NCBI GenBank assembly: GCA_040403315.1
Contig: JBBAKX010000004.1
Location: forward strand, 159,658-223,657
Reading direction: 5' to 3'
DNA from: Flavobacteriales bacterium
GTDB taxonomy: Bacteria; Bacteroidota; Bacteroidia; M30B66
DNA length: 64,000 nt
Shown here: piece by piece, positions 255 to 15,211 of the stretch
Numbering within the stretch: the first letter of the stretch is position 1
How the letters are laid out: every line of letters begins with the position of its first letter
The notes under the pieces: model-generated
Seen by the model: only the letters and a program-made list of their open reading frames with translations
What the model was told of the DNA's origin: nothing
Databases searched by the model: none
Made by a program: the position numbers and the translations under genes

Positions 255-1577
255 CTATTTCATCAACCACTTGTACAAGTCGTTTCCGTTGGCATACACA
301 AGCAAAGACAACAAAAGAACCATACCAACTAACTGTGCCCGCTCGAGTAATTTCTCGGACGGTTTACGGCCTGTAATCATTTCCCCGATAAGGAAAACCA
401 CGTGACCACCATCGAGTGCAGGAATGGGTAGAATGTTCATGAATGCCAACACGATCGACAAGAAAGCTGTGAAGCTCCAGAATTGACGCCAATCCCAGTC
501 TTTGTCGAACTGCTTAGCAATGGCAGCAAAACCACCCACTTGCTTGGCGCCTTCCTTGGTGAAAACGAGTTTAAACTGTTTCACATAGTTTTTAAGCGTT
601 GCTAAACCTTCGTTTATCCCCGCAGGGAAAGACGCGAAAAAGCCATACTTGATTGTTTCTACGTTGATGAATTTTTCTGGTCCGTAAGGAGCAAAACCGA
701 TTTTCCCTTCTGAACTAATACTTAGGTTAAGGCTCAGAGTATCTTTTCCGCGAAGCACTGTAACATCGGTAGTTTTGCCTTTCTGGATTTTCAATTCGTT
801 TTGTAAATCCGAGAAAAACTTCGTTGACACTCCCGCTACAGCAACAATTCGATCATCCTTGCGCAAGCCTGCTTTGAAATTTTCTGTTGAATCAGGAATT
901 TCGGCTACAACTGCTGGAAATGCAGGGAAAAACAATTTGGGTTCTTTTTGACCGATCACTTTTTCCGCGAAATCTTTGGCCATTGGGATCTTCACTTCTT
1001 CACCTCCACGATTTACCATCACAAAAGTTGGATTATCGAGCAACAAAGCCAGATTGGCTTCTTGGAAATGCTTTGGTTTGGTGCCATTCACTTCTAGTAG
1101 TACATCTCCTGTTCTAAAGCCTGCCGAAAGCGCTAAGCTATCGCTCACCATGATGCCGTCTTTCGCATTTTTGATAGGCAATATTTCCTTCCCCCAAACG
1201 AACAAAACGATGGCATAAAGGAGCATCCCAAGAATCAAATTCACGGTTACACCACCAATCATGATGATCAATCGTTGCCAAGCTGGCTTCGACCTGAACT
1301 CCCACGGTTGAGCTGGAAGTGACATCTGTTCTTTGTCCATCGATTCATCCACCATTCCCGAAATCTTCACATAACCTCCCAAAGGCAACCAGCCGATTCC
1401 ATACTCAGTATCTCCTTTTTTCACCTTGAAAAGTGAAAACCATGGATCGAAGAAGAGGTAGAATTTCTCTACTCGTGTTTTGAAAAGTCTTGCAGGAATA
1501 AAATGCCCCATTTCGTGAAGAACCACGAGAATCGAAAGGCTAAGAATCAATTGGGCAATAATGATGAGAACGTCCAT
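255..1577 (-). CDS. rseP: RIP (site-2) zinc metalloprotease RseP
   Basis: HEMGHF zinc-binding motif in the first TM helix at the N-terminus. PDZ-like middle region. C-terminal membrane segment with LDGG motif. 440 aa is typical for RseP. Confidence 0.85.
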   Translation of the reverse strand: MDVLIIIAQLILSLSILVVLHEMGHFIPARLFKTRVEKFYLFFDPWFSLFKVKKGDTEYGIGWLPLGGYVKISGMVDESMDKEQMSLPAQPWEFRSKPAWQRLIIMIGGVTVNLILGMLLYAIVLFVWGKEILPIKNAKDGIMVSDSLALSAGFRTGDVLLEVNGTKPKHFQEANLALLLDNPTFVMVNRGGEEVKIPMAKDFAEKVIGQKEPKLFFPAFPAVVAEIPDSTENFKAGLRKDDRIVAVAGVSTKFFSDLQNELKIQKGKTTDVTVLRGKDTLSLNLSISSEGKIGFAPYGPEKFINVETIKYGFFASFPAGINEGLATLKNYVKQFKLVFTKEGAKQVGGFAAIAKQFDKDWDWRQFWSFTAFLSIVLAFMNILPIPALDGGHVVFLIGEMITGRKPSEKLLERAQLVGMVLLLSLLVYANGNDLYKWLMK

Positions 1578-1633
1578 CAGGAATTAAATAAGGTTTGCAA
1601 AAGTAGGGAATTGATTGATGATCTTGGGGTAAA

Positions 1634-2812
1634 TCAACAAACCATTTGGGCTGCTTTCTCTTTGGCTATTTCGCGGGTTTCGCGGTCAGTATTCACATAC
1701 GTTTCATACGTTGGCTTTGCCACAAACGCGATGGTTTCCATACAATGTTGCACCAAATCGCTCATGTCAAGAAATCCAATTTGTCGGTTTAAAAAGGCTG
1801 CGACTGCAATTTCATTTGCCGCATTGAGGATGCAAGGCATGTTTCCGCCTTGGCGCATAGCGTCGAATGCCAAATCGAGATTTCTGAATGTATTTCGGTC
1901 TGGAGCTTCGAAAGTAAGTGATGGATAATTCATGAAATCGAACCTCGGAAAATCGGTCTGCAAACGCTTCGGATAAGTGAGTGCATATTGAATCGGAAGC
2001 TTCATATCAGGCAATCCCATTTGAGCTTTCATCGAACCATCGTTAAACTGCACTATACTATGTACAATGCTTTGTGGATGTACGATAACATCAATTTGGT
2101 CGGCTCGAAGATTAAACAACCATTTCGCTTCAATTACTTCAAGGCCTTTGTTCATCAACGATGCAGAGTCAATAGTGATTTTGGCTCCCATCTCCCAGTT
2201 GGGATGCTTCAAGGCTTGTTCGCGGGTCACGGCGCGCAAAAAATCAGTGTCTTTTCCTCTAAACGGACCGCCAGAAGCGGTGAGATAAATTTTCTCGATT
2301 TTATTTTCCCATTCTCCAGCAAGGCATTGAAAAATCGCCGAATGTTCAGAATCGACAGGATAGATATTTACACCTTTTTCCTTCGCCAAAACGGTGATTA
2401 GCTCACCTGCAACTACCAAGGTTTCTTTGTTCGCCAAAGCAATATGCTTTCCTGCGTTAATGGCTGCAACGGTAGGTCGTAAACCAGCATAGCCCATACA
2501 AGCGGTAAGTACAATCTGTGTAGATTCTTGTTCCATCATTTGTACGATGGCATCATCACCTGCAAAAACCTTAATTGGCAAGGCATTTAGCGCATCACGC
2601 ACCTCGGTGTACTTTTCTTCATTGCCAACAACGACTGTTCCGGGTAGAAACTCTTGTGCCTGTTGAATCAACAATTCGGCATTCGAATGACCAATCAAAC
2701 AATCAAGTTCGAAATAATCAGGATTTGCGCGCACTACATCAAGTGCCTGTGTTCCTATAGATCCAGTAGATCCAAGGATGGTAAGGTGTTTTTTCGGGGC
2801 AAGCTGACTCAT
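1634..2812 (-). CDS. dxr: 1-deoxy-D-xylulose 5-phosphate reductoisomerase
   Basis: LTILGSTGSIG NADPH-binding N-terminus, with conserved Dxr core motifs (LANKE, DSEHSAIFQ, LTASGGPF). The track ORF extends to 2899, but that extension (MYFILKTLYFILKT) is the translation of a 21-bp tandem DNA repeat. The likely true start is the Met of MSQLAPKK at 2812. Confidence 0.85.
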   Translation of the reverse strand: MSQLAPKKHLTILGSTGSIGTQALDVVRANPDYFELDCLIGHSNAELLIQQAQEFLPGTVVVGNEEKYTEVRDALNALPIKVFAGDDAIVQMMEQESTQIVLTACMGYAGLRPTVAAINAGKHIALANKETLVVAGELITVLAKEKGVNIYPVDSEHSAIFQCLAGEWENKIEKIYLTASGGPFRGKDTDFLRAVTREQALKHPNWEMGAKITIDSASLMNKGLEVIEAKWLFNLRADQIDVIVHPQSIVHSIVQFNDGSMKAQMGLPDMKLPIQYALTYPKRLQTDFPRFDFMNYPSLTFEAPDRNTFRNLDLAFDAMRQGGNMPCILNAANEIAVAAFLNRQIGFLDMSDLVQHCMETIAFVAKPTYETYVNTDRETREIAKEKAAQMVC

Positions 2813-2858
2813 TGTGCAAAGAACGCAAAAAAGAAGGCTAGCGCGAGAATAGATGTTA

Positions 2859-2925
2859 GTCTTGAGTATAAAGTACAAAGTCTTGAGTATAAAGTACAAA
2901 GTCTAAGGACTTCAGACTAAAGACT
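2859..2925. repeat. Tandem direct repeat: 21-bp unit GTCTTGAGTATAAAGTACAAA x2 plus partial copy, followed by AGACTAA x2
   Basis: Read directly: 2859-2879 and 2880-2900 are identical. A partial third copy starts at 2901. agactaaagactaa follows at 2914-2927. Confidence 0.8.
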
Positions 2926-3235
2926 AACCAGGGCGCGCCCCTGTGGGTCACGTGCTTGGCTATAGGCTGCTCCGTAAACTTCGCAGCGCTATTTGCCTCG
3001 TCCGTTCGCGCAGGACCTCGATTCAAATGAACCGATGATTTTATTGCAATACATCAAGGCAATTGAAGATTTTACAGGTATTCCAACAAGATATTGTTTC
3101 GATGATAAATCCTGAAAATTAAATACCAAACTAACTATCAAAGTTTTACAAGCAAAAACGGCAGATGGAAACTGAGGTTAAACACAATAAATAAAATAAT
3201 CATCGCATTGATTTTGTGAATATTAACCCCTTTTG

Positions 3236-3254
3236 AAACGGTTATAATCGTTTA
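3236..3254. promoter_or_regulatory. Palindromic motif AAACGGTTATAATCGTTTA (copy 1 of 2 in window)
   Basis: AAACG/CGTTT inverted arms around an 8-nt GTTATAAT spacer. A near-identical copy lies at 39506-39524. Both are intergenic. Confidence 0.35.
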
Positions 3255-3467
3255 TATCCGACTAGAATTTGTTGGATAAAAACTAGAATCTTAGATTGCC
3301 CCTTGGGAAGGGGATAGTTGGGTTTTCCCTAAAAAATAAAATTTATAAGTTAATAGAAAGTTATGAACGACACTTTTTCATAACCAATCTAATTGGCAAT
3401 AAATTAAACTTATTGATTTACTTGCAGAAATACCTAGAAAAGGCGAAAATTCCGAGTTTGATTGCCT

Positions 3468-3860
3468 TCAAATAAATAAATAGATAAGGACAGCATAGAC
3501 CAATATTGGCAGAGCTACGCAAATCCAAACAGATGTAGCGAAATAATTGCTTCCGAAGCGATTGAAATAGTTTAAGAATCGCACAGATCTTAAAAAGAGA
3601 GCATCGGAAAAAGTGACGGAATCCCGACAACCTAGCATAAACCCCAATGCAACAAATAAAAATGCAAATTTCAAATAATGAACGCCTAAGCCATAATCAA
3701 TAAGCGCAAGCCAGGAAAAGGGAATACATAAATAATATAGAACAATGTTGATTTCATTGTAAGTACGCCCTGTCTTTGAAGCAATATAATACAGGCTTCT
3801 AGCAACAATTGAAAAAATACGGTTGATCATAGATATCGAATTAATATAGATGAGAAACAA
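3468..3860 (-). CDS. hypothetical polytopic membrane protein (about 4 TM)
   Basis: Only ORF in a 1.1-kb AT-rich gap. The translation is strongly hydrophobic with about 4 predicted helices. No recognisable domain. Confidence 0.3.
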   Translation of the reverse strand: MFLIYINSISMINRIFSIVARSLYYIASKTGRTYNEINIVLYYLCIPFSWLALIDYGLGVHYLKFAFLFVALGFMLGCRDSVTFSDALFLRSVRFLNYFNRFGSNYFATSVWICVALPILVYAVLIYLFI

Positions 3861-4066
3861 AGTGGAGGAGTTAACTGCAACCTATTTGCATGTAAGTTAA
3901 AAATATGAGTGAAGAGTAATACTCATTTTGAAGTCTGGCTAAATTTTGGGACACACTAAAAGAGACAGTTACGGTATTTTTTAATTTTTTAATTCCTTAT
4001 TTTTGACAAAGAAAGAAATATTATCTATTTTTTGCGTTTGCAATCAACATGAGTTCAAACTAAAAT

Positions 4067-5956
4067 ATGAAATTTAACGATAGCCATAAAGCCGTCTTCC
4101 TTCCTGTTTGCGAAAAAGTACTTTGTCAATACAAAGGCTTTGTGATGAACAATGAAATGTGTCAAGAAATATCGGAAAATGATGTATTTTACATTAAAAA
4201 AGATTATACACACAATGAACCTTTGGGGAATCTAAAAAAAATAATTATAGTTTTTCTGATACTGCCGTTTCTTCCCTTCATCATTATAGGGGCAATAATT
4301 GATACAATAAATAACAATGAGAGATTCCTGAGCATACTCGGGAATATAATGATCACCATATTGGGATTATTTTTCAGAAATAGAATTACTATTACTTCTG
4401 AAAAATACAAGAAAGAACGTTACAAAGAAATCGTAGAAGAGGATATTCCTGGTTTTATAAAGCATTGCCACTCACACTTTGCAAAAGTTTATCTCTATTC
4501 CTATACCGAATTAACTTCAAGTGATCAACAAAGAGTAAATGAGTTGATTGGAAATGGTTCTGTGCAAGGGATACAAATCATTGAAAGCCTTTCAGACCTT
4601 TCTACGCTGATTCAAGAGCATAAAATATCTGTTCATAATTCTTTTCTTGTTTTACTTTCTGAAGATTTAATCGAAGTGAAAAACGCAAAGAAATTGGGTT
4701 TTAGCGATTTGTTTGTGTCAAATAAAATTGGAGTCTGGGGCAAAAGGAATTTCAATGGAAAAAGCTCGTTAAGTTGGAATAGCAGGGAAACATTAGTATC
4801 GATGAAAGAAAATGTCTTCCATTATATCCATGCAAAGAAGAATGTTTATTTCGATAACCAAACTGTCGTTTTTATTGAAGAAGAAAAGGATGACTTTCTC
4901 AATAAATATATATCTCAAAACTATGATAATCTTTGCACCAGATTCCATGAAAAAGGAATGCGATTTATTTATTTCCCTTCATTAAAGGATGGATTATCTG
5001 AACTTCCTGAAAATATATACTCCTACTTAAAAATAAAAATCCCATATCTATACAACTTACAAGACAATGAAATAAAAGAACTTATTACAGAATTCATAGC
5101 AAATATTGATGAGGAATCATTTGTTAAATATTGCATTGAACCACTTGAATTGCCTTATTTCAGAAGACCTTGCTTGTTAAGAAGCATGTCTAGTGGTTGG
5201 AAAAATACTGAGAATCGATTTACCTATAAACCACTAATCTATAGTTCAGAAGAAGATCTGGACAACCTTTTCGACCAGTATTTTTTACAGCTTGTAATAC
5301 CCGATGACGAAGATGGGGTTCGCTACAGAAGAGAATCACCGCCTCCAGAATACGAAAGTGATTACCACTTTTATAGAGATGCATTTAAAGATGAGCCAGA
5401 ACTTAAAGAGAAAATAGATCAGCTTAAAGCACAAGGCAATTACGGTGTTCTAGCCGAAGCAGTTATCTACATGATGGCGACACTAAAAAATGTTAAACCG
5501 GAAATACTTCAAAAAATTCAGCCATTAATTGAAGGTAGAGATTTAGAAAAAAAAGCGGAAGTATTAAGCCCAATCTATATCGACAAAGAAAATCGCATAT
5601 TTCTACCATCTTATGGAAACAGGGAAATAAAACTCCATGCCTTGCCCAAAACAGTCTACTTCCTTTTCCTGAAAAACCCTGGCGGAATTCGCTTTAAAGA
5701 AATTCACTTGCATAAGAAAGAATTAATGGAGATTTATGCCGATATAAGTCCTAAAAGCGACTTAGAAAGTATGAGAAAATCGATTGATGATTTAGTGGAT
5801 AGCACCAATCCTTCGTTGAATCAAAAATGCAGTCGAATTCGACAAGAAATCTTAAGCATTATTGATGAACCATTAGCAAAGTATTACTATATAGATGGGT
5901 ATAGGGGCGAAGAAAAGAAGATCAAAATTGATCCATCCTATATACATTTTGAGTAG
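4067..5956 (+). CDS. hypothetical protein, N-terminal 2-TM anchor plus ~530-aa soluble region of unknown function
   Basis: 629-aa ORF. Hydrophobic helices at about residues 58-77 and 88-103. No catalytic or known-domain motif recognised. Very AT-rich codon usage relative to the core genes. Confidence 0.6.
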   Translation: MKFNDSHKAVFLPVCEKVLCQYKGFVMNNEMCQEISENDVFYIKKDYTHNEPLGNLKKIIIVFLILPFLPFIIIGAIIDTINNNERFLSILGNIMITILGLFFRNRITITSEKYKKERYKEIVEEDIPGFIKHCHSHFAKVYLYSYTELTSSDQQRVNELIGNGSVQGIQIIESLSDLSTLIQEHKISVHNSFLVLLSEDLIEVKNAKKLGFSDLFVSNKIGVWGKRNFNGKSSLSWNSRETLVSMKENVFHYIHAKKNVYFDNQTVVFIEEEKDDFLNKYISQNYDNLCTRFHEKGMRFIYFPSLKDGLSELPENIYSYLKIKIPYLYNLQDNEIKELITEFIANIDEESFVKYCIEPLELPYFRRPCLLRSMSSGWKNTENRFTYKPLIYSSEEDLDNLFDQYFLQLVIPDDEDGVRYRRESPPPEYESDYHFYRDAFKDEPELKEKIDQLKAQGNYGVLAEAVIYMMATLKNVKPEILQKIQPLIEGRDLEKKAEVLSPIYIDKENRIFLPSYGNREIKLHALPKTVYFLFLKNPGGIRFKEIHLHKKELMEIYADISPKSDLESMRKSIDDLVDSTNPSLNQKCSRIRQEILSIIDEPLAKYYYIDGYRGEEKKIKIDPSYIHFE

Positions 5957-6206
5957 GCAATAAGTTTGAGTATAAATACCTATTCGACACTACAGTAGTC
6001 CATTCATTATCCAAGACCTTAATTTTATATTTATGATAATGTGATCGTTAAAGTAAAATTACTACACTGCAAGGTTGCAGAAATCAGGATAGCATTTTAA
6101 AGGAAAATACATTTGCTTTCGGTTTTAAACATTAAGACCTAAACCTATTATTCAATTTGCAAATACAATGCAAGCGCCTGCTGCATGTTTGCTTTCTAGA
6201 TGAAGT

Positions 6207-7199
6207 ATGCCAGTTAATAAAAGCGCCTTAATTAGATATATGGCTTTGGATCGATGTCTCCAGAGAAAATATCGTCCATATACGCTTGAAGGCTTACTGA
6301 GAGAAGTGAATAGATGCCTTGAAGAAGCCGGTTATAGTCAATCGGATAGTATTGCATTAAGAACTCTCTATGCAGATTTGAAATTCATGGAAAGTGAGGC
6401 AGGATTTGCGGCTCCAATCATTAGAGATAAAAAGAATGGACATAAATTGTATTACTACGATGATCCAGAATTTTCAGCCATTGGAGTGTATTCATCGCTT
6501 CACAATGAAGGCTTGGAGCTAATTGCCCACAGCAAAGGAATCCTTCCATTTGAATGGATTACGGAACGTTTATACAATACCAAGCATCCTTTAATTAAAA
6601 AAAGAACGCTCATTCGTTTTACGCACAATCCATTTGTTGCCGGACAAGCTTGGGTAAAGAAATTATATGATCTCATCCTTGAGCAAGTAGCTGTCAAAAT
6701 TGAGTTAACCGTTAACGACAAACCATCTAATTACGACCTACACCCTTGGCAAATTAGAGAGCACAAAGGGAGGTGGTTTTCACTGGGAAAAGCAATCAAT
6801 GCATCCATTACACCGGTTATTATTGCATTAGCAGACATACATTCCATAGAACCCAATACTGATATAATTTATCTCCCTCCTTTAGAAACCGATTGGGATG
6901 AATTATTTGAAGATTGCATTGGTCCAATTCCTCCCATAGGTGAAAAGCCAGAGTTAATAAAACTCATAGCCAATAACCATATAGATAAATTTCTCCAAAA
7001 TAAACCATTGCACCATTCACAAAAAAGAAGAAAACTAGAAGAAAACCAAGTTGAGTATCAATTCAAACTCATATTGGACAATGAGCTAGAAAGGCAATTA
7101 TTGATGCTTGGCCCTGGAATAAGTGTTGCAAAGCCAGAAAATCTGCGAAATCGAATGAAAGAGATCACAAAACAAATGCACACTATTTATTTAGAATAA
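6207..7199 (+). CDS. WYL-domain transcriptional regulator (YafY/BrxR/CapW-like)
   Basis: N-terminal wHTH carrying the family hallmark RTLYADLKFMES...GFAAPI...YYY. Central WYL-like segment HPWQIREHKGRWFSLGKA. 330 aa fits the HTH-WYL-WCX architecture. Confidence 0.7.
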   Translation: MPVNKSALIRYMALDRCLQRKYRPYTLEGLLREVNRCLEEAGYSQSDSIALRTLYADLKFMESEAGFAAPIIRDKKNGHKLYYYDDPEFSAIGVYSSLHNEGLELIAHSKGILPFEWITERLYNTKHPLIKKRTLIRFTHNPFVAGQAWVKKLYDLILEQVAVKIELTVNDKPSNYDLHPWQIREHKGRWFSLGKAINASITPVIIALADIHSIEPNTDIIYLPPLETDWDELFEDCIGPIPPIGEKPELIKLIANNHIDKFLQNKPLHHSQKRRKLEENQVEYQFKLILDNELERQLLMLGPGISVAKPENLRNRMKEITKQMHTIYLE

Positions 7200-7403
7200 A
7201 TGTCAATATGCAAAAAGAGCGCACACTCACTTTAGAAATTTGAAATCCTTATTAGACGGTAGAATAGTTATGCTCACCAAGGGCTATTGCTTTCTTTTCT
7301 ACTTCCTAAATGAAATTGAAAAGAGCTTTATGATTAAAGCGAATAGTTAAATCTATTAAGCAATAGCCTTTGGTTTAACTCCTAACACAAACAATAAAAT
7401 TCA

Positions 7404-7799
7404 ATGTGGAATAAAATTATGGTTGTAGCAGAATGGTTTGGCGAAATGGCCGAACGCTACAAATCAATACGTGATTTTAACAAAGCTGCTAAATACTCTT
7501 TTGTATCTGGAAATGCTCCTACTCTACTCGAAGTAAAGATAACAAAGGGTGACAGCAATTTTAAGCATGCATTTTCGAAATGGATGGGAGGAGGATTTAG
7601 AATAAAAGCATTAGCTGGAAGACCTATGAGCAATATAGAACTCCGCGAAATTGGAGGTATAGTCCTTGATAATGAAGAGCTTGTAAGAAAGCTTGTTTCT
7701 CTAGGATGGGACACGCTTGAAATTCATTCTAATGAAGGAACACAAGGGTTAAAGTGGCCATTAAAAGATTACGCAAGACTCGGAGGATTTTTAAAATAA
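7404..7799 (+). CDS. hypothetical protein (131 aa), first gene of a compact 5-gene operon
   Basis: ORF followed 7 nt later by the next gene. No recognisable motif. The start may instead be the internal Met of MVVAEWF. Confidence 0.45.
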   Translation: MWNKIMVVAEWFGEMAERYKSIRDFNKAAKYSFVSGNAPTLLEVKITKGDSNFKHAFSKWMGGGFRIKALAGRPMSNIELREIGGIVLDNEELVRKLVSLGWDTLEIHSNEGTQGLKWPLKDYARLGGFLK

Positions 7800-7805
7800 G
7801 CATTC

Positions 7806-8201
7806 ATGATATCAGAATTCATTCATAATCATTCCATTATACTTCTCAAAATATGCTCGATATTGGCATTTATCGAGTTGGTTATAATCTTAGCATTGAT
7901 TAGATATACTTTAAAAAATCGCAACAAATTAAGTGATGAAGAATTGTCACAACTTGAAAAATTAAAAGATGCCAAGCGTGCAGATATTGATATGAATGGC
8001 CTCCTAGACAGCATCAATAATTCGAAAGCAATACACAGAGAACTTATTACGAAATGCCACCCTGACAGATTTATAGATCAAGGCTTGAGAGAAAAGGCGA
8101 ATGCTATTATCCAGGAGATAAACCAAAATAAAAACAATTACTCAGTATTGGTTCAATTAAAAAGTAAAGCGGAACAAGAACTAAACATTCAATTCAACTA
8201 A
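7806..8201 (+). CDS. DjlA-like membrane-anchored J-domain (DnaJ-like) protein
   Basis: N-terminal TM helix (IILLKICSILAFIELVIILALI). C-terminal segment KAIHRELITKCHPDRFIDQGLREKANAIIQEINQNKNNYSVL aligns with the DjlA J-domain, including the HPD loop and helix III. Confidence 0.55.
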   Translation: MISEFIHNHSIILLKICSILAFIELVIILALIRYTLKNRNKLSDEELSQLEKLKDAKRADIDMNGLLDSINNSKAIHRELITKCHPDRFIDQGLREKANAIIQEINQNKNNYSVLVQLKSKAEQELNIQFN

Positions 8202-8203
8202 AG

Positions 8204-8416
8204 ATGCAATCACCAGGAATTTTATTTGTCCAGCTAGGACTCCGTATCGTAGGAGCTATAGTTTGCTCTTCAAAAGCCCGTTCATTAAACCGAAATTCAG
8301 GTGCTTGGGGATTATTTGGATTTATGATGCCGATAATAGCAATGATTTGGATTCAATTTATGAAGCCTATAGTAGATTGGAACAAAGGGTCGGATGAACA
8401 TGATACATACAATTAA
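8204..8416 (+). CDS. small membrane protein (70 aa, 2 TM)
   Basis: Starts 3 nt after the previous stop. Two hydrophobic helices. Confidence 0.4.
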   Translation: MQSPGILFVQLGLRIVGAIVCSSKARSLNRNSGAWGLFGFMMPIIAMIWIQFMKPIVDWNKGSDEHDTYN

Positions 8417-8428
8417 ATCAATAACGAA

Positions 8429-8635
8429 ATGAGTGATTCAAGCGAAGCTGGTTGTCTAAGCATAGCAATCATAATCATTACTGTAGCCATTTCAATTGGT
8501 TCTGGAATGATTGCATGGAATTGGATTGAACCTGAAGGTTTTTGGGGCGCTATTGTCTTCATCATTGCATGGGGAGTATTGAGCAAAATAGGGCATCTCG
8601 TAGCCATGGGAATTGCAGCACTACTTTTTAGTTAA
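8429..8635 (+). CDS. small membrane protein (68 aa, 2 TM)
   Basis: Tightly packed within the operon. Two hydrophobic helices. Confidence 0.4.
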   Translation: MSDSSEAGCLSIAIIIITVAISIGSGMIAWNWIEPEGFWGAIVFIIAWGVLSKIGHLVAMGIAALLFS

Positions 8636-8663
8636 ATGAACCTTTCAATTTTTAATCATCGAA

Positions 8664-10724
8664 ATGGCAATGAATAGAATTATTTTCCTTTTGTTTTTCG
8701 CATTTTCAATTAGCATTTGCAGCAGCCAAAGCTATAATTACGATCAGGGTGTTGAAGCATACAATGATGGAAATATCGAATCAGCAGTTGAATACTTCAA
8801 CAGAGAAATAACCGATAATCCGAAGTCATATTATGCTTTATATTATAGAGCAAACATTTTTAACTTTCAGGAAAACTATTCCAGCGCACTGAGGGATATT
8901 AGTAATGTAATTAAATATATCCCATCCAAAGAGAAGAAGTTACTAGCTGTTTCTCATAGTATGCGGGGCGACATCTATTTCAAAATAGAGAATATAGATA
9001 AGGCTTTTGAAGAATACGCTACAGCGCTAAATGTAAATCCCAATGATGCTGACTTATATATTACAAGAGCGCAAAAATACTTCGAACTAAAGAAATACAA
9101 TTTAGCGGAGGTTGATTACAAAAAAGCGCTCAAAATGGATGAAACCATGGAAATAGCATATGCTGGATTAGGAAGAAACTATATCGTACAGTATAAATAT
9201 GCAGAAGCAGAGAGCGTATTGAATAAACTTGTGAAGCTTGCGCCAACCTATTCGATGGCATATAAATTCCGAGCTCGTTGCTATTATGAACAAAAGAAAT
9301 ACACTGAAGCAATAGAAGAAATTTTTACAGCATTTTCGTTAGATGAAGAAGATAATTTTCTACGCGAAACACTGATTCTATACTCGGAAGAAAATGCTGT
9401 GCTTGCAATTTCTAAAGTAAATAGTAAAATTATTGAACAACCAGAGAAATCGACATGGTATTATCTACGTTCAAGAATTAATTACGATGCAAACGAATTC
9501 AAAAAGGCGATCGATGACATTAATAAACTACTTGAAATAGAAGACGAAAATTATAGATCTAGCTTTTTAACATACAAAGGGAAATGCTTGTTAAACATAG
9601 GGTTGTACGAACAAGCTATTGAAATTTATTCAGAAGCAATACTACTCGATTCAAGTGATGCAGAAAACCACAGCAAAAGAGGAGATGCAAAACGATTAAA
9701 AGGTGATTATGAAGGAGCTATAGCAGATTTTACAAATGCTATTCAACTTGATCCTACGTCCTCATTTTATTATTACAGAAGAGGGTGGGTATCTGAGGAA
9801 TTCATGAATAATACAGAAGCTGGACTCAACGATTACAATCAATCTATTCAGTTAGATAAAAATTATGCTTACACCTATTTACATCGAGGACGGTTATATG
9901 AAAAGAAATTAAACAATCGCGCTAAAGCCACGGAAGACTATTCTGCCATTTTAGGCATTGATACAACAGTAAGTAATGGTGGAAATTGCAAGCAATATGC
10001 ACTATTTCATCTAGGCAGAAACAATGAAGCTATAGAATGGATGAGCAAGATATTAGATGAATACCCTACAGATGGTAATTATTATGATGCTGCCTGTTTG
10101 TATTCATTACTTAATAAATCCGATGAATCAATAGCTTTTCTTAAAGAAGCATTTGAAAAAGGATATGTAGATCTCATCCACTTAAGTAAGGACGACGATT
10201 TAGACAATACTAGAAAATCAAGTGCATTTAATTCGCTCATTGAGGAATGGACGAAGAAAATTGAAGAAAAAAATAAAACGGAAAAAATTGAACAAAGCGG
10301 AATAAAGAATGTGAAAGAAGAAACCGTTTCTGTTCCGATGAAAGCGAGAGGAGCAAATACCTACGAAGTTTCATGCAAAATAAACGGACTTGGTTTAAAT
10401 CTAATTTTCGATACGGGAGCAAGTGACATCTCTATCTCGCAAACAGAAGTGCAGTTTATGCTAAAAAATGGGTACTTAAATTACAACGACATTACAGGAA
10501 CCCAAAAGTATATGGATGCCAATGGAGATATAGAAGTTGGAACAACACTCGTTTTCAAAAATGTAGACTTTGGAGGACTTGTTCTTAAGAATGTCAAAGC
10601 ATCTGTTGTAAACAATAAGAATGCGCCACTTCTATTTGGCCAAAGTGCACTCAGCAAATACGGTAAAATCACCATTGATAACGAGAAAAAGCTCATAACA
10701 ATAACAAAGAAAACCACATTTTAG
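8664..10724 (+). CDS. secreted TPR-repeat protein with C-terminal retropepsin-like (clan AA) aspartyl protease domain
   Basis: Signal peptide. Multiple TPR-like Y/A-rich repeats. C-terminal IFDTGASDISIS active-site motif plus a second ...LLFGQSAL... half, typical of bacterial retropepsin-like proteases. Confidence 0.7.
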   Translation: MAMNRIIFLLFFAFSISICSSQSYNYDQGVEAYNDGNIESAVEYFNREITDNPKSYYALYYRANIFNFQENYSSALRDISNVIKYIPSKEKKLLAVSHSMRGDIYFKIENIDKAFEEYATALNVNPNDADLYITRAQKYFELKKYNLAEVDYKKALKMDETMEIAYAGLGRNYIVQYKYAEAESVLNKLVKLAPTYSMAYKFRARCYYEQKKYTEAIEEIFTAFSLDEEDNFLRETLILYSEENAVLAISKVNSKIIEQPEKSTWYYLRSRINYDANEFKKAIDDINKLLEIEDENYRSSFLTYKGKCLLNIGLYEQAIEIYSEAILLDSSDAENHSKRGDAKRLKGDYEGAIADFTNAIQLDPTSSFYYYRRGWVSEEFMNNTEAGLNDYNQSIQLDKNYAYTYLHRGRLYEKKLNNRAKATEDYSAILGIDTTVSNGGNCKQYALFHLGRNNEAIEWMSKILDEYPTDGNYYDAACLYSLLNKSDESIAFLKEAFEKGYVDLIHLSKDDDLDNTRKSSAFNSLIEEWTKKIEEKNKTEKIEQSGIKNVKEETVSVPMKARGANTYEVSCKINGLGLNLIFDTGASDISISQTEVQFMLKNGYLNYNDITGTQKYMDANGDIEVGTTLVFKNVDFGGLVLKNVKASVVNNKNAPLLFGQSALSKYGKITIDNEKKLITITKKTTF

Positions 10725-10829
10725 GCTTACGCATCATCATGCAAATAAAGTGTAGAGTCCAGAAACTACAGTAATAAACGGGGCGGTTCTGAAAAGCCAA
10801 ACGAGTAAGAAACAAAAACACATTTTAAA

Positions 10830-11192
10830 ATGAAAAGAAATTTCTTAGTACTTATAGGGCTTGCCTTAATTTTATCAAGTTGCGGAATACACAATGGACT
10901 AACTAAAAACATTAATAATCACACAACAGAAGTTGTTTTATCAAAGAATAATTTCAAGGTGCTAGAAAGTGTTCAAGGAGAATCACAAGCGACATACATA
11001 TTGGGCATTGGCGGGCTTTCTAAAAATGCGCTGGTATCAGCAGCAAGGGCTAACATGCTTTCTAAAGCGAATATCGTAGGTGGATCTAAAGCAATCATTA
11101 ACGAAACAGTAGAAATTAAACATTCAATATTCCCTTTCTACCGCAAATACAAAGTCACAGTTTCAGGTCATGTTGTAGAATTCACGCAATAG
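10830..11192 (+). CDS. small lipoprotein (120 aa)
   Basis: Signal peptide ending in a lipobox (LSSCG). Confidence 0.55.
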   Translation: MKRNFLVLIGLALILSSCGIHNGLTKNINNHTTEVVLSKNNFKVLESVQGESQATYILGIGGLSKNALVSAARANMLSKANIVGGSKAIINETVEIKHSIFPFYRKYKVTVSGHVVEFTQ

Positions 11193-11238
11193 AATAGAGT
11201 CGTTTAATTTCTTTGTTAAAAATCATAAAATCAGTTTA

Positions 11239-11652
11239 ATGAAAAAGACATTCTTAATCCTATTTACAGCAGGTATTTCACTTACCTGCTATGGTCAAGT
11301 AACCTATTCAAAAGATATATTTGGCAATGTGGTAGCTTCTGATCCTGTTGGAAACCAGGCCACCTATTCTAGTGATATATTTGGAAATATTCAGTACCAA
11401 AATAATTCTGGAACAAACGGGACATTCTCGAAAGATATTTTTGGAAACACGACCTATCAAGACAATCAGGGCACAAGTGGCACATATTCGAAAGATATTT
11501 TCGGGAATACAAACTACCAGGACAACAATGGAACCAGAGGCACTTACACGAAAGATATTTTTGGCAATACAAATTATCAAGACATTAAAGGGAATAGTGG
11601 CACCTATTCAAAAGATATTTTTGGGAACACTGTTTTCACTCCACGAAAATAG
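11239..11652 (+). CDS. secreted tandem-repeat protein (about 6-7 copies of a 20-aa G-T-x-G-T-Y-S-K-D-I-F-G-N-T-x-Y-Q-D-N repeat)
   Basis: Signal peptide, then repeated YSKDIFGN units. The underlying DNA is a 60-bp tandem repeat. Confidence 0.6.
   Translation: MKKTFLILFTAGISLTCYGQVTYSKDIFGNVVASDPVGNQATYSSDIFGNIQYQNNSGTNGTFSKDIFGNTTYQDNQGTSGTYSKDIFGNTNYQDNNGTRGTYTKDIFGNTNYQDIKGNSGTYSKDIFGNTVFTPRK
11293..11630. repeat. Intragenic 60-bp tandem repeat array encoding the YSKDIFGN repeats
   Basis: Repeated aaagatatttttggnaa... units, each followed by a variable ~40-nt spacer. Confidence 0.6.
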
Positions 11653-11671
11653 CTCCAATTTATATTTGATT

Positions 11672-11718
11672 AAAACGGGTTTAGTTACGATTCAATGTAA
11701 CTAAACCCGTTTTTTTTA
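11672..11718 (+). terminator. Rho-independent terminator
   Basis: Perfect 17-bp inverted repeat (aaaacgggtttagttac / gtaactaaacccgtttt) with a 9-nt loop, followed by a T7 tract. Confidence 0.8.
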
Positions 11719-12041
11719 TTTCAAATTGTTTTCTTCGATTTGTTAAAATTGATCAAATTGGGATTCTGTTTTCTTTACTTCAAAATCTTGAAAAGATGAG
11801 CTTCATACTACAATAAATCTATGACCATATCGATATGATCTTTCGAGCTCATTGAAAAACAAAAGATCTAACTCAATAATCCAGAATAAAAAATTCGTGC
11901 GTCTGTAACTTTTTATCGGCATATCACACCCACTAACCATACATTCATTCCGTTTCAGCAAAATAAATTCGTCATTACCAAACTTTTCGATCATCTCCCA
12001 GAAATAATCCCGAGTTTTACTTCGCCATTTTAACTTTCAAT

Positions 12042-14366
12042 ATGCCAACAATAAAAAGGATACTTTTGCTAATCAGCTTTTTATCGCCTATCTGGTCGAT
12101 TGCTCAGCAAAAATTCAGTATCAACGGAACGATTAAAGATGCAACATCTGGAGAAGAGCTCATTGGAGCAGCAGTTCTTGTAAAAGAGATGCCCGGAACA
12201 GGCGTTGTTGCGAACGCATACGGTTTCTATTCAATAGAACTTCCAACGGGCGAATACACTATGAGATTTCAGTACACTGGATATGAACTGAAGGAGCAAA
12301 AAGTTAAACTAGATAAAAACTTCAAACTAAATATCGAGTTAAAGCCCCGGAATTCTGAGCTGAAGGAAGTAGAAATTACTGCAGAAAAACCAGATGCAAG
12401 TCTCTCAAGGGTAAGCATGGGTGTAGAAAAACTCACAGCCAAAGAGATTAAGATGATTCCAGTTTTGTTCGGGGAGACCGACTTGCTAAAAACATTGCAA
12501 CTACTTCCAGGTGTTAAAAGTGCAGGCGAAGGAAATACAGGTTTTTTCGTACGAGGTGGTAGTGCAGATCAGAACCTTATTCTACTTGACGAGGCGCCAG
12601 TTTACAATGCCTCTCACCTACTCGGATTTTTCTCAGTGTTCAATTCTGATGCAGTAAAGGAAGCCACATTATACAAAGGCACAATGCCCACAGAGTTCGG
12701 TGGCCGGATGTCGTCTGTGTTAGATGTTAAAATGAATGAGGGAAATCAGAAAAAACTCAATGTACTTGGCGGTGTAGGTTTAATTGCTTCAAGATTAACA
12801 GTAGAAGCACCAATTTTAAAAGACAAAAGCTCTTTTACTGTATCCGCAAGACGCACATATGCTGATGTATTCTTGAAATTGTCGGCAGATACCAACCTCA
12901 GAAAATCTACACTTTATTTCTACGATTTAAATGCAAAATTTAACTACAAAATCAGCGATAAAGACCGCATATTCGTAAGTGGATATTTTGGTCGCGATAA
13001 TTTCGGATTTTCAGACCAATTTAGGTTCGACTGGGGAAATGCAACTGGAACCGTAAGATGGAATCACCTTTTTTCTGAAAAATTATTTTCAAATACTTCA
13101 TTAATTTTTAGTGATTATAATTACAAAATTAAATTATCCGCATCCGATTTCGATATTTCTATTGGATCTACCATTAGAGACTGGAATGTAAAACAAGATT
13201 ACCAGTATTTCATGAACAACAAGAGCACACTGAAATTTGGTTGGAATTCGATATACCACACCTTTATGCCTGGTGAAGTGGATGGGGCAGACTTTATTGA
13301 AAATCTTACCAACGAAAAAAGATATGCCTTAGAAAATTCCATTTACATTTCTCACCAATACCAATTCAATAAAAAATTATCAATCGATTACGGCCTCCGC
13401 GTTGGCTCATTTAGCTACATCGGCCCAGTTACCGTTTATGAATTCGATAATGATGGCAATGTTTCCAGCGAAAGGAGTTCCCAAAAAGGAGAGTTCATTA
13501 AAACGTATATCAATCCTGAACCTCGCCTAAGCATTAATTACCGAATAGATAGTTTGCAATCCATCAAAGGTGGATACAGCAGAACCGTTCAGAATTTGCA
13601 TTTGCTCAGCAATACCACTTCTGGAAATCCTACAGATATTTGGATACCTAGTTCTAACAATGTAAAAGCAGAATTAGGAGATCAATATTCGGCAGGTTAT
13701 TTCAGAAATTTGAAGGACAATAAATTCGAAGTTTCAGCAGAAACATATTATAAGTGGATGAACAACCAAATCGACTACCGAAATGGTGCTGAATTGATCC
13801 TAAATCAAGAAGTAGAAGGTGAATTGGTTTACGGAACAGGAAGAGCGTATGGCTTGGAATTGTTGCTTCGTAAAAAAACTGGAAAACTTACCGGTTGGGT
13901 TGGTTACACCTTATCTCGCACGGAACGAAAATTCGAAGAAATTAACGACGAGAATTATTTTGCTGCCAAGCAAGACAGAACCCACGATTTAACCATCGTA
14001 GCCATGTATGAATTAAATAAAAAATGGGCTTTATCGGCAAATTTCGTGTATTACACTGGCAATGCTGTTACTTTCCCAAGTGGTAAATATGAAATAGATG
14101 GGCAAGTGGTAAACTATTATTCCGAAAGAAATGGTTACAGAATGCCTGCCTATCATCGATTAGACTTCGGTGCAACATACTACCGCAAAAGAACCGATAC
14201 TTATGAGTCAAGCTGGTCGTTCAGTTTATACAATGCATACGGACGAGAAAACGCGTACACAATCAGCTTCCGCGAAAGCGATACCAATTCGGGCAAATCA
14301 GAAGCTTATCAATTATCTCTTTTTAGATGGATCCCATCTATCACTTATAACTTCCATTTCAAATGA
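12042..14366 (+). CDS. TonB-dependent outer-membrane receptor (CarboxypepD_reg-like N-domain + plug + beta-barrel)
   Basis: Signal peptide. N-terminal FSINGTIKD...GAAVLVKE carboxypeptidase-regulatory-like domain. Plug motifs (TDLLKTLQLLPGV, FVRGG, ILLDEAPVYN). Terminal aromatic residue. Confidence 0.85.
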   Translation: MPTIKRILLLISFLSPIWSIAQQKFSINGTIKDATSGEELIGAAVLVKEMPGTGVVANAYGFYSIELPTGEYTMRFQYTGYELKEQKVKLDKNFKLNIELKPRNSELKEVEITAEKPDASLSRVSMGVEKLTAKEIKMIPVLFGETDLLKTLQLLPGVKSAGEGNTGFFVRGGSADQNLILLDEAPVYNASHLLGFFSVFNSDAVKEATLYKGTMPTEFGGRMSSVLDVKMNEGNQKKLNVLGGVGLIASRLTVEAPILKDKSSFTVSARRTYADVFLKLSADTNLRKSTLYFYDLNAKFNYKISDKDRIFVSGYFGRDNFGFSDQFRFDWGNATGTVRWNHLFSEKLFSNTSLIFSDYNYKIKLSASDFDISIGSTIRDWNVKQDYQYFMNNKSTLKFGWNSIYHTFMPGEVDGADFIENLTNEKRYALENSIYISHQYQFNKKLSIDYGLRVGSFSYIGPVTVYEFDNDGNVSSERSSQKGEFIKTYINPEPRLSINYRIDSLQSIKGGYSRTVQNLHLLSNTTSGNPTDIWIPSSNNVKAELGDQYSAGYFRNLKDNKFEVSAETYYKWMNNQIDYRNGAELILNQEVEGELVYGTGRAYGLELLLRKKTGKLTGWVGYTLSRTERKFEEINDENYFAAKQDRTHDLTIVAMYELNKKWALSANFVYYTGNAVTFPSGKYEIDGQVVNYYSERNGYRMPAYHRLDFGATYYRKRTDTYESSWSFSLYNAYGRENAYTISFRESDTNSGKSEAYQLSLFRWIPSITYNFHFK

Positions 14367-15211
14367 GAAATTCAATATTTGCAATTGTTTCCATATTGGG
14401 CCTGATTTCATTTTCTAGTTGCGAAAAAGTAATCGACATCGATCTTAAAGAAAGCGATAATAAACTCGTAATCGAAGGCAAATTAAACAATGACGGAGAA
14501 TGTACAGTTAAGCTTACGCAAGTAAAAAACTACGATCAAGACAATGAATTCCCTGGCGTTGACGATGCCATTGTAGTGATCTTCGACGATTTGGGCAACC
14601 TAGACACACTTGAACAAGGAATCGCAGGCATGTTTTACTCTGAAGAAATTATTGGCACTCCAGGAGTAACCTATTCGCTTAATGTATTTTGGAACAACAA
14701 TAACTACACTTCGGTTTGTAAAATGCCAGAATTGGTTGCAATTGATTCACTATCGTTAAGAAAAGAAGTGTTTTTTTTTGACACAACTACCATTGCGATC
14801 GTTCATTTCAACGACCCAGGTTCAGAAAATAATTATTACAGATATCTTTACACTATAAATGCTACACTCAACAAAGACTATAATGTTGAAAGTGATAGAT
14901 TCTATAATGGTTTAACCGTAGAAACAAGAATTCCAATATTTAATGGAGGACCGAATAGTGGGCCCGGAGGAGGAGGTCCTGGAGGCCCCGGTAATATAGG
15001 ACCTGGACCAATAAACCCAGATACTTTAAGATTAGAAATGTGGGGAATTGACCAATCAATGGAACTCTACTACCGAACATTATCAGCATCTATTGATGCC
15101 GGTTCCGGACAACAAGCTGCACCTGCAAATCCTGAAAGTAACATCACTGGAGGTGCGTTGGGGTATTTTTCTGCATATTCAATCAGTAAAGCGTCTATCC
15201 TCATCGAATAA
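14363..15211 (+). CDS. DUF4249-family lipoprotein (usual partner of this TonB-receptor class)
   Basis: Overlaps the receptor stop by 4 nt. Lipobox SSC. N-terminal IDIDL...VIEGKL pattern. Contains a Gly/Pro-rich low-complexity insert (GGPNSGPGGGGPGGPGNIGPGP). Confidence 0.6.
   Translation: MRNSIFAIVSILGLISFSSCEKVIDIDLKESDNKLVIEGKLNNDGECTVKLTQVKNYDQDNEFPGVDDAIVVIFDDLGNLDTLEQGIAGMFYSEEIIGTPGVTYSLNVFWNNNNYTSVCKMPELVAIDSLSLRKEVFFFDTTTIAIVHFNDPGSENNYYRYLYTINATLNKDYNVESDRFYNGLTVETRIPIFNGGPNSGPGGGGPGGPGNIGPGPINPDTLRLEMWGIDQSMELYYRTLSASIDAGSGQQAAPANPESNITGGALGYFSAYSISKASILIE

Follow-up and report, generated by a model that had tools for sequence, protein, structure and literature searches.

J-domain proteins (JDPs) that serve a dedicated system set where Hsp70 works and on what, and few of the bacterial ones have known clients. 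Among membrane-bound members of the class, Escherichia coli DjlA and mitochondrial Pam18/Tim14 carry an N-terminal transmembrane (TM) anchor and a C-terminal J domain that faces the cytoplasm or the matrix, an arrangement that localizes Hsp70 activity to the membrane. DjlA is ~270 amino acids (aa) long, has a central domain and is encoded by a stand-alone core gene. In Shewanella oneidensis, the short JDP AtcJ of the AtcJABC system binds AtcC and recruits DnaK, relieving the inhibition of RNA polymerase by AtcB (PMC6715715; bioRxiv 10.64898/2026.09.07.749886). The T4-like phage RB43 encodes Rki, a small J-domain protein of accessory type that works through the DnaK of its host (PMC3486835). 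Here we describe a predicted three-gene cassette, comprising a protein family of its own (ORF1), a membrane J-domain protein and a small membrane protein, that is carried by a 64,000-nucleotide stretch of DNA from Flavobacteriales bacterium (GenBank assembly GCA_040403315.1, contig JBBAKX010000004.1, positions 159,658 to 223,657 of the forward strand). This whole stretch is referred to below as the window.

The cassette consists of ORF1 (7404..7799, plus strand), which encodes a soluble protein of 131 aa, the gene for the J-domain protein (J protein; 7806..8201, plus strand), and sm1 (8204..8416, plus strand), whose product of 70 aa has two TM segments. It is preceded by a gene for a WYL transcription regulator with a putative WCX domain (6207..7199, plus strand) and followed by sm2 (8429..8635, plus strand), a lineage-restricted accessory gene for a 68-aa protein with two TM segments, and by a gene (8664..10724, plus strand) for a secreted tetratricopeptide repeat (TPR) protein that ends in a clan-AA (retropepsin-like) aspartic protease domain. 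Gaps between successive genes, from the WYL gene through the TPR-protease gene, are 204, 6, 2, 12 and 28 nucleotides (nt). An initial annotation of this DNA had placed six open reading frames (ORFs) at these positions on the plus strand, with the WYL gene ~200 nt upstream of a tightly spaced downstream set, and this layout is correct. The domain types and the regulator type are already known, and in kind the cassette would be a dedicated JDP operon. As far as libraries and literature searches show, neither the ORF1 family nor the cassette, nor its rewiring to various sensors, has been described. In particular, searches of the literature for a J-domain defense cassette turned up no account of these genes as a set.

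With one genome scanned per species, a profile search recovered 73 ORF1 loci across Flavobacteriia, Cytophagia, Chitinophagia and Bacteroidia. As a comparison set we assembled 77 related Bacteroidota loci (L001-L077), in which neighboring ORFs were clustered and the window proteins compared. ORF1 clusters are present in 71 of these loci and J protein clusters in 70, and the J gene always lies directly downstream of ORF1. A gene for a small two-TM protein is third in most loci, where it falls into clusters of 40, 6 and 6 loci. Gene order within the cassette is fixed, with median gaps of 5 and 7 nt. The WYL gene adjoins the cassette in only three of the 77 loci (L003, L004 and L005), the TPR-protease gene adjoins it in none outside the window's own clade, and sm2 occurs only in L003, L004 and L030.

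The conserved unit therein is the three-gene cassette of ORF1, J protein and small two-TM protein, distributed patchily in Bacteroidota; the WYL gene and the protease gene are local neighbors of the cassette, not components. The initial annotation had proposed the WYL gene and all five downstream genes as one system, and had said that the proposal should fall if these genes were not co-conserved in related genomes. They are not: only ORF1, the J gene and usually the small two-TM gene stay together across the comparison set.

The genes that flank the cassette differ in almost every genus. Upstream, the recurrent neighbors are a TPR-histidine kinase and a response regulator (12 loci each; a LuxR-type C-terminus of the latter is suggested by its sequence), a gene for a DUF805 membrane protein (11 loci) and XRE regulators (several loci). 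Other frequent neighbors are a VWA block (9 loci), type I HsdM (8), the p629 family described below (7), type I HsdS (6) and SNase (5). The upstream regulators thus far seen, which are of WYL, TPR-histidine kinase plus response regulator, or XRE type, are interchangeable.

The cassette itself appears to be compact, horizontally mobile and dispensable. The pairing of ORF1 with the J gene also occurs in five IMG/VR contigs and on one Parabacteroides distasonis replicon, where the cassette lies inside a ~9-kb insertion headed by genes for a tyrosine integrase and a helix-turn-helix (HTH) protein. A tyrosine integrase is encoded within 10 kb of the cassette in five loci. A phage origin was considered and rejected: a tblastn search for ORF1 found no match among 50,697 phage genomes, the IMG/VR contigs number only five, and neither ORF1 nor the J protein has a PHROG match.

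Several individual loci depart from the common arrangement. Two ORF1-J copies lie within ~5 kb in L033, and in L042 one ORF1-J pair is accompanied, within ~3 kb, by another ORF1-like gene that is longer (215 aa) and next to which no J gene was called. In eight marine Flavobacteriaceae loci (L001, L002, L007, L010, L011, L019, L020 and L036), a recurrent gene set is present ~1-4 kb upstream of ORF1; it comprises a 230-aa gene on the minus strand, a gene for a secreted, Cys-rich peptide of ~55 aa, a TPR-histidine kinase gene and a gene for a response regulator with a probable LuxR-type C-terminus. This set looks like a peptide-sensing two-component module. Cassette contigs in L029, L047, L048 and L070 are binned to metagenome-assembled genomes of Candidatus Falkowbacteria, Planktophila (Actinomycetota) and Akkermansia. 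These are probably mis-binned Bacteroidota contigs, the alternative being horizontal transfer outside the phylum.

Natural deletions among relatives separate the cassette from its neighbors. Contigs of close relatives preserve the synteny from rseP-dxr to the TonB-dependent receptor gene at 88-92% nucleotide identity, where contig ends permit. One of them, L081, has the full gene set; the intact (L081) and deleted (L078) types both come from a series of lake metagenomes. Three others (L078, L079 and L080) have the WYL gene, sm2 and the protease gene, and ORF1, the J gene and sm1 are gone; the p629 gene is intact in L078 and L079 and is cut by the contig end in L080. The segment absent from these three contigs is 902 bp long (window positions 7486..8387) and lies between imperfect direct repeats, GATTTTAACAAAG (7473-7485) and GATTGGAACAAAG (8375-8387). 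Without it, ORF1 lacks codons 28-131 and is reduced to a stub of 22 codons, the J gene is missing altogether, and most of sm1 is gone.

A deletion of the opposite kind is found in L003, which is 70-78% identical to the window and has wholly different flanks. This locus retains p629, the WYL gene, ORF1, the J gene and sm1, and lacks the counterpart of window positions 8546-10675, a stretch that takes in the bulk of sm2 and almost the entire protease gene. Fragments of sm2 and of the protease gene's 3′ end are still present, which indicates that the whole arrangement is older than the window's clade. Because the deletions in L078-L080 and in L003 are reciprocal, the cassette and the protease gene are separable in nature in both directions. 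The initial annotation had suggested a functional link between the membrane J domain and the envelope protease. Given that the two separate in nature, and that the protease gene is never adjacent outside the clade, this link is without comparative support.

These results bear directly on the possibility that the WYL gene and all five downstream genes form one defense or abortive-infection system in which the envelope protease would work together with the membrane-bound J domain. We regard this as very unlikely. The genes do share a strand and tight spacing with no predicted terminator until position 11672, the whole set recurs in L081, the L003 remnants show that the arrangement predates the window's clade, and sm2 is fused to sm1 in L030. 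Set against this are the 77 loci, with the protease beside the cassette in none outside the clade and the WYL gene in three, and the existence of both a cassette without the protease (L003) and a protease without the cassette (L078-L080). No PADLOC system matches the set, and as a conserved unit it is already contradicted by the comparison above.

ORF1 is the best-conserved gene of the cassette, and its product represents a new family. It matches nothing in Pfam, NCBIfam, PADLOC, PHROG, the PDB or fold searches, in agreement with the initial annotation, which had assigned the 131-aa protein to no known family. Its 479 database homologues are all unnamed. It is a small family: 1.84 billion representative proteins yield only 155 clusters for it at 50% identity, and nearly all of its members are stand-alone proteins of 120-140 aa. 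Identity across Flavobacteriaceae genera is 66-89%, with 49 invariant columns, and mean pairwise identity is 0.65 for ORF1, 0.48 for sm1 and 0.40 for the J protein. From these alignments ORF1 appears to be under strong constraint and to evolve more slowly than its partners.

Weak ORF1 matches to BTRD1 repeat proteins were rejected; they are due to a short motif, GFR[IL][KR]A, that is repeated five times. In one 413-aa protein, P0230, a DUF927 domain (E = 6.8e-31) is combined with a C-terminus that resembles ORF1; this may be a real fusion or a gene-calling artefact.

The product of the second gene is predicted to be a one-TM J-domain co-chaperone. Its J domain spans residues ~60-125 and carries the HPD motif at residues 85-87, which is kept in 66 of 66 homologues. 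Among 36 members of the J family searched against the Pfam DnaJ model (PF00226), 28 match at E ≤ 1, the best at 5.3e-5. When the family profile was compared with the PDB, the 11 best matches and most of the total of 44 were J domains, with E values of only 0.0026 to 1. The window protein has weak NCBIfam matches to the J regions of HscB, AtcJ (listed as ‘ActJ’) and DjlA, with E values from 7e-4 to 0.04.

Structure prediction and hydropathy are consistent with this assignment. The TM helix covers residues ~8-37, and in an AlphaFold2 (AF2) model (pLDDT 84) it extends over residues 2-39, with the HPD motif in a loop between helices 63-83 and 92-107. By hydropathy, the J protein has one TM segment, sm1 and sm2 have two each, and the TPR-protease has an N-terminal signal-like segment. 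The mean pairwise identity of J proteins is 0.50 in the J domain and 0.27 in the N-terminal part. The TM-anchored J domain with an intact HPD loop that was claimed in the initial annotation is borne out by Pfam and PDB profiles at the level of the family, the window protein itself being without a Pfam match. The likeness to DjlA that was claimed along with it does not hold at full length, where the score is 13.4 bits against a cutoff of 162.

Comparison with the three described systems shows what is shared and what is not. Like DjlA and Pam18/Tim14, the window J protein combines an N-terminal TM segment with a C-terminal J domain that has an HPD motif. Unlike DjlA, it lacks a central domain, its gene is part of a mobile three-gene cassette, and only the J region aligns with the NCBIfam DjlA model (NF006948). 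AtcJABC resembles the cassette in that the operon of a short J-domain protein also codes for small proteins without a known fold, and it is the precedent for an operon-encoded, dedicated JDP that recruits housekeeping DnaK to specific partners (PMC6715715). There is also a weak match of the J protein to the AtcJ model NF050028 (E = 8e-4 over the J region; 19.8 bits, far under the 150-bit cutoff). However, the Atc proteins have no TM segments (PMC6715715), whereas the JDP, sm1 and sm2 are membrane proteins here; gene order differs, and ORF1 has no NCBIfam match. In addition, the Atc system is reported to be vertically inherited (bioRxiv 10.64898/2026.09.07.749886), whereas the cassette is patchy and lies in variable islands. 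Rki is likewise a small J-domain protein that a mobile genome carries as an accessory, but it is soluble and phage-encoded, whereas the cassette is absent from the 50,697 phage genomes and rare in IMG/VR (five loci).

The remaining cassette protein, sm1, has a conserved loop motif (K-A-x-x-L-N-R...G-W) and a weak match to the phage protein family phrog_8436 (E = 5e-6). Hydropathy and length (70 and 68 aa) agree with the description of sm1 and sm2 in the initial annotation as two-TM proteins of ~70 aa. No meaningful NCBIfam match was obtained with ORF1, sm1 or sm2 in a library in which the presence of AtcA, AtcB and AtcC models is unchecked.

The WYL protein is a divergent member of its family, as indicated by a single-sequence PDB search that returned no match. 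Pfam matches are below threshold, at 23.4 bits for WCX (cutoff 23.9) and 13.7 bits for WYL, and the WCX score is just under its cutoff. The PADLOC WYL model matches residues 148-324 with an E value of 1.2e-15, and a profile built from nine homologues matches solved WYL regulators, both PafBC-type and other WYL domain-containing proteins, over residues 76-326 (E = 3.7e-13 to 2e-6), so that the alignment with the PDB extends to residue 326. The identification of this gene as a WYL regulator thus stands on the PADLOC and homologue-profile matches, Pfam being sub-threshold. An N-terminal HTH is inferred from position and sequence appearance.

Candidate operators for this protein were found as copies of a 15-nt palindrome, TGCAAATAnnnTGCA, that occurs before both the WYL gene and ORF1, and in WYL-bearing loci only. 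In the window, one copy (TGCAAATACAATGCA, 6158..6172, plus strand) lies 35 nt upstream of the WYL start codon and may be an autoregulatory operator. The block around it is invariant upstream of the WYL gene in five WYL-type loci despite diverged surroundings. A degenerate copy with two mismatches (TGCAAAAAGAGCGCA, 7209..7223, plus strand) is located 10 nt past the WYL stop codon and is a candidate cassette operator. A further copy (TGCAAATAGGTTGCA, 3876..3890, minus strand) lies upstream of a minus-strand ORF (3468..3860), in the region divergent from p629, and a weaker one is present at 10740-10754. Scanning the 64-kb window for the box yielded seven matches against 2.3 expected by chance, and these four sites are among them.

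Both the WYL and ORF1 copies are followed, exactly 15 nt past the box, by TTTG, which we take to be a Bacteroidetes -7 element. The TTTG-containing -7-like box at 7235-7242 (plus strand), with the same spacing after the palindrome as in the WYL promoter, is a candidate cassette promoter. A metagenome scan with the WYL protein gave only six loci, two of which (L088 and L089) served the operator analysis. The box is found before the WYL gene and before ORF1 in the window, L003, L005, L078, L081, L088 and L089. Among L001-L077, boxes with at most one mismatch and at most 400 nt upstream of ORF1 are confined to the three WYL-bearing loci.

This restriction is in-silico evidence for local control of the cassette by the WYL protein, and we propose that WYL regulation operates in this lineage through a link that was acquired locally. 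Accordingly, the WYL control put forward in the initial annotation is plausible here, where boxes track WYL-bearing loci, and does not extend to the cassette in general, given a WYL gene in three of 77 loci.

The arrangement resembles that of BrxR, CapW and PafBC-type regulators, in that the WYL region and the putative WCX region have matches among solved members and to the PADLOC WYL model, and the WYL gene is upstream of the genes that it putatively controls. BrxR has two R-boxes per island, each an inverted repeat whose halves are 5 bp apart (PMC9122601), and the palindromic boxes with a 5-nt spacer at the regulator's own promoter and at a second promoter are comparable to R-BOX1 and R-BOX2 (PMC9122601). 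The half-sites here are ~5-6 bp, in contrast to 10-11 bp for BrxR. The WYL protein also differs from these regulators in being divergent, and the cargo downstream is not a recognized defense system.

Between the candidate promoter and ORF1 lies a leader element of ~100 nt (7276..7374, plus strand), predicted to fold into a three-way junction (-40.7 kcal/mol, z -7.6). The element has no Rfam match, is found only in the window's clade (L078-L081), and is absent from the shorter intergenic region of L003. Where its stems differ between the window and L081, the plus-strand changes either give G.U pairs or are compensatory. The idea that this hairpin is a multi-copy repeat was dropped, as there is one copy in the window and elsewhere only the orthologous site in the fetched loci (L078-L081).

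Taken together, we consider it an even prospect that the cassette is an accessory module whose J protein would recruit DnaK to the membrane, under the control of WYL or other sensors, in a response to stress or genetic conflict. In the window, the WYL protein would bind the boxes before its own gene, ORF1 and the minus-strand ORF at 3468-3860, and would repress these genes until the WYL domain senses a signal. The induced J protein would then insert in the inner membrane and expose its J domain to the cytoplasm, where the invariant HPD loop could recruit housekeeping DnaK and stimulate its ATPase at the membrane. An Hsp70-like gene is found near the cassette in only one locus (L032), so a dedicated Hsp70 partner was discounted and the partner is presumably host DnaK. 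DnaK might act on ORF1 and the sm1 membrane protein, or be controlled by them. Such a circuit would be a dedicated JDP-client (class C JDP) arrangement like AtcJ-AtcC-AtcB, but tethered to the membrane.

The output would most likely be a response to stress or to genetic conflict with phages or mobile elements. We favor such a role because of the mobility of the cassette, its WYL wiring and the content of neighboring genes, with confidence that is moderate at best. The cassette, gained, lost and rewired to different sensors in lineages from marine Flavobacteriia to gut Bacteroidales, offers a compact, testable three-gene natural system, and could show whether recruitment of Hsp70 to the membrane serves as an accessory stress or immunity device.

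Part of the case for a conflict role comes from the neighborhoods in which the cassette and p629 are found. The p629 gene (4067..5956, plus strand) encodes a membrane-anchored protein of 629 aa. It lies upstream of the WYL gene in every WYL-type locus that covers that side (L080, L081 and L089 end within or before it), and is also near the cassette in several Bacteroidales loci that have no WYL gene. The minus-strand ORF at 3468..3860, which encodes 130 aa with about four hydrophobic segments and marks the left edge of the low-GC island described below, is conserved beside the p629 gene in L003 and L005. Distant homologues, 40% identical to p629, adjoin a Shedu SduA gene (PADLOC E = 2.8e-96), a DUF4407 gene and a PLD-SNF2 helicase, and the nuclease-J fusion described next.

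In a p629-type island of L098 (10809-12173; also in L099), beside HEPN_AbiU2 and a trypsin-MORN protein, a 454-aa protein combines a PLD-like nuclease (PLDc_2, E = 1e-22), a coiled coil and a C-terminal J domain. This fusion, a second J domain in surroundings that resemble a conflict locus, matches PADLOC DrmC with an E value of 5.6e-11 and Pfam DnaJ at 26.6 bits, just under threshold, and has the motif CHPDK. From this small number of loci, the neighborhoods of p629 homologues appear to be of conflict type. Cassette neighborhoods, for their part, are variable regions with type I restriction-modification (RM) genes, SNase genes and occasional integrases, and a random sample of 150 de-duplicated neighbors includes type I methyltransferases, GmrSD, pVip and PADLOC candidate families (PDC/HEC).

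A more specific proposal is that of chaperone capture, in which ORF1, the TM-anchored J protein and sm1 would constitute an anti-phage or anti-mobile-element effector that moves host DnaK to the inner membrane. There, DnaK would arm ORF1 and sm1, for example to make a membrane lesion, or would be withheld from DnaK-dependent invaders. Derepression would be effected by interchangeable sensors, WYL here and two-component systems elsewhere, and the PLD-nuclease-J-domain fusion of L098 would put this principle to use a second time. In this specific form the proposal is speculative and, in our estimate, unlikely.

The same body of data can be read as an abiotic-stress proteostasis module, a means of niche adaptation to serve, for instance, in cold, osmotic stress or membrane-protein quality control, that would bring DnaK to membrane clients with no link to phages or mobile elements. 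DjlA of E. coli is a physiological analogue of this kind. The only experimentally understood analogues are physiological, with AtcJ acting in cold adaptation (PMC6715715), and the cassette is common among Flavobacteriia of aquatic and marine origin, follows two-component sensors in 12 loci, goes unrecognized by PADLOC and is absent from the phage genomes searched. However, the distribution is patchy and horizontal-looking with strain-level loss, whereas Atc inheritance is reported to be vertical (bioRxiv 10.64898/2026.09.07.749886). The cassette also repeatedly adjoins RM genes and an integrase-headed island, and those WYL regulators of this type that have been characterized are linked with DNA damage and defense (PMC9122601, PMC11662680). 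We hold a purely proteostatic role to be somewhat improbable.

A further possibility is that the cassette is a selfish maintenance or exclusion module of integrative elements, with sm1, for instance, a conditional membrane toxin held in check via ORF1, the J protein and DnaK; its effect would be to stabilize the island or to keep competitors out. The small two-TM sm1 is typical of membrane toxins and has the phrog_8436 match noted above (E = 5e-6), one copy of the cassette is in an integrase-headed island, two copies occur within single loci (L033 and L042), and in the Atc system DnaK recruitment relieves the toxicity of a conditionally toxic partner. In most loci, though, genes for integrases, transposases or conjugation are absent within 7-10 kb, and the best-conserved component is ORF1, not sm1. 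The clean natural deletion of all three genes argues against strong addiction, and we consider this explanation distinctly unlikely.

Returning to the accessory-module reading, several observations weigh against it. The window J protein falls below the Pfam DnaJ threshold and has no Pfam DnaJ match at E ≤ 1, and comparison of its model with known folds gave nothing more specific than generic helical bundles. The winged HTH of the WYL protein is matched by no profile, with residues 1-75 uncovered in Pfam, NCBIfam and the PDB profile. The promoter assignments depend on a Bacteroidetes consensus, not on mapped transcription start sites, and the ORF1-proximal box of the window itself carries its two mismatches. 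Co-transcription of the genes downstream of the cassette is argued only from short gaps and an absent predicted terminator. PADLOC-DB v2 recognizes no cassette gene, with ORF1, sm1 and sm2 giving no match, and the sample of 150 neighbors is a mixture of defense and housekeeping genes that also has PGK, tRNA synthetase, ATP synthase and cargo of the type IX secretion system (T9SS).

The initial annotation had stated that the locus corresponds to no named defense system, and PADLOC agrees, with the WYL protein as its sole match of substance. Otherwise, the J protein has a spurious match to Cas8a (E = 2.5e-4) and the TPR-protease matches a generic TPR model only.

The TPR-protease has a signal-like N-terminus, many TPR matches and the motif FDTGAS. 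Its C-terminal domain scores above threshold with two Pfam models, gag-asp_proteas (PF13975) at 50.4 bits (cutoff 28.2) and PF13650 at 35.8 bits (cutoff 24.3), which upholds its description in the initial annotation as a secreted TPR protein ending in a clan-AA protease. The match to TIGR02281 (E = 3.7e-11, 43.3 bits) is under the cutoff of 57.95, and the 90% identity cluster to which the protein belongs is annotated by sources as ‘clan AA aspartic protease (TIGR02281 family)’. With its DTG motif and Pfam scores above threshold, it resembles an ordinary member of the TIGR02281 or gag-asp_proteas proteases with TPRs; it differs in its sub-cutoff TIGR02281 score, and it has no linkage to the cassette outside the window's clade. 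The protein is a passenger of this clade that lies outside the conserved cassette.

In the window, the cassette belongs to an accessory island of low GC content that has dxr on one side and a TonB-dependent receptor gene on the other. The GC content of positions 3001-11720 is 0.341 against 0.394 in the remainder of the window, as expected from the AT-rich block reported in the initial annotation, and the region is among the 7 lowest of 111 sliding windows. On the left it is flanked by the core genes rseP and dxr (255-2899, minus strand), and on the right by the TonB-dependent receptor gene and a DUF4249 gene (12042-15211). No tRNA genes were found in the window.

Two observations concern p629 and the L003 locus. 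No domain is recognizable in p629; its C-terminal ~150 residues recur in L096 as a paralogous gene (8764-9843, 34% identity) right after the p629 homologue, which suggests a mobile domain. In L003, a nucleotidyltransferase/HepT-like toxin-antitoxin pair (7953-8580) is located between p629 and the WYL gene, and the contig downstream of the cassette encodes a reverse transcriptase, a Fic protein and a DnaB-like ATPase.

Downstream of the protease gene are a DUF805 RNA motif (10747..10815, plus strand), a DUF6567 lipoprotein gene (10830-11192, plus strand) and a gene for a secreted repeat protein of 137 aa (11239-11652, plus strand), the last gene before the sole strong terminator on the plus strand. 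This terminator-like hairpin, an 18-bp stem with a T run (11672..11713, plus strand), is the probable end of both the transcription unit and the island. With no terminator predicted before 11672, the genes downstream of the cassette are probably co-transcribed with it, and sm2, the TPR-protease, the DUF805 RNA, DUF6567 and the repeat protein are lineage-specific neighbors.

The DUF805 RNA motif (Rfam RF03081) scores 71.3 bits against a gathering score of 51.1, with the model covered over its full length. The motif here is not before a DUF805 gene, lying instead between the protease gene and the DUF6567 lipoprotein gene. It was considered as an explanation for the recurrent DUF805 gene upstream of the cassette and rejected, since Rfam gave no DUF805 RNA match in any of 10 loci with that gene. 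The 137-aa repeat protein consists of about six tandem copies of a 20-aa unit, SKDIFGNTxYQDNxGTxGTY, and similar repeat proteins are encoded near the cassette in L030 and L041.

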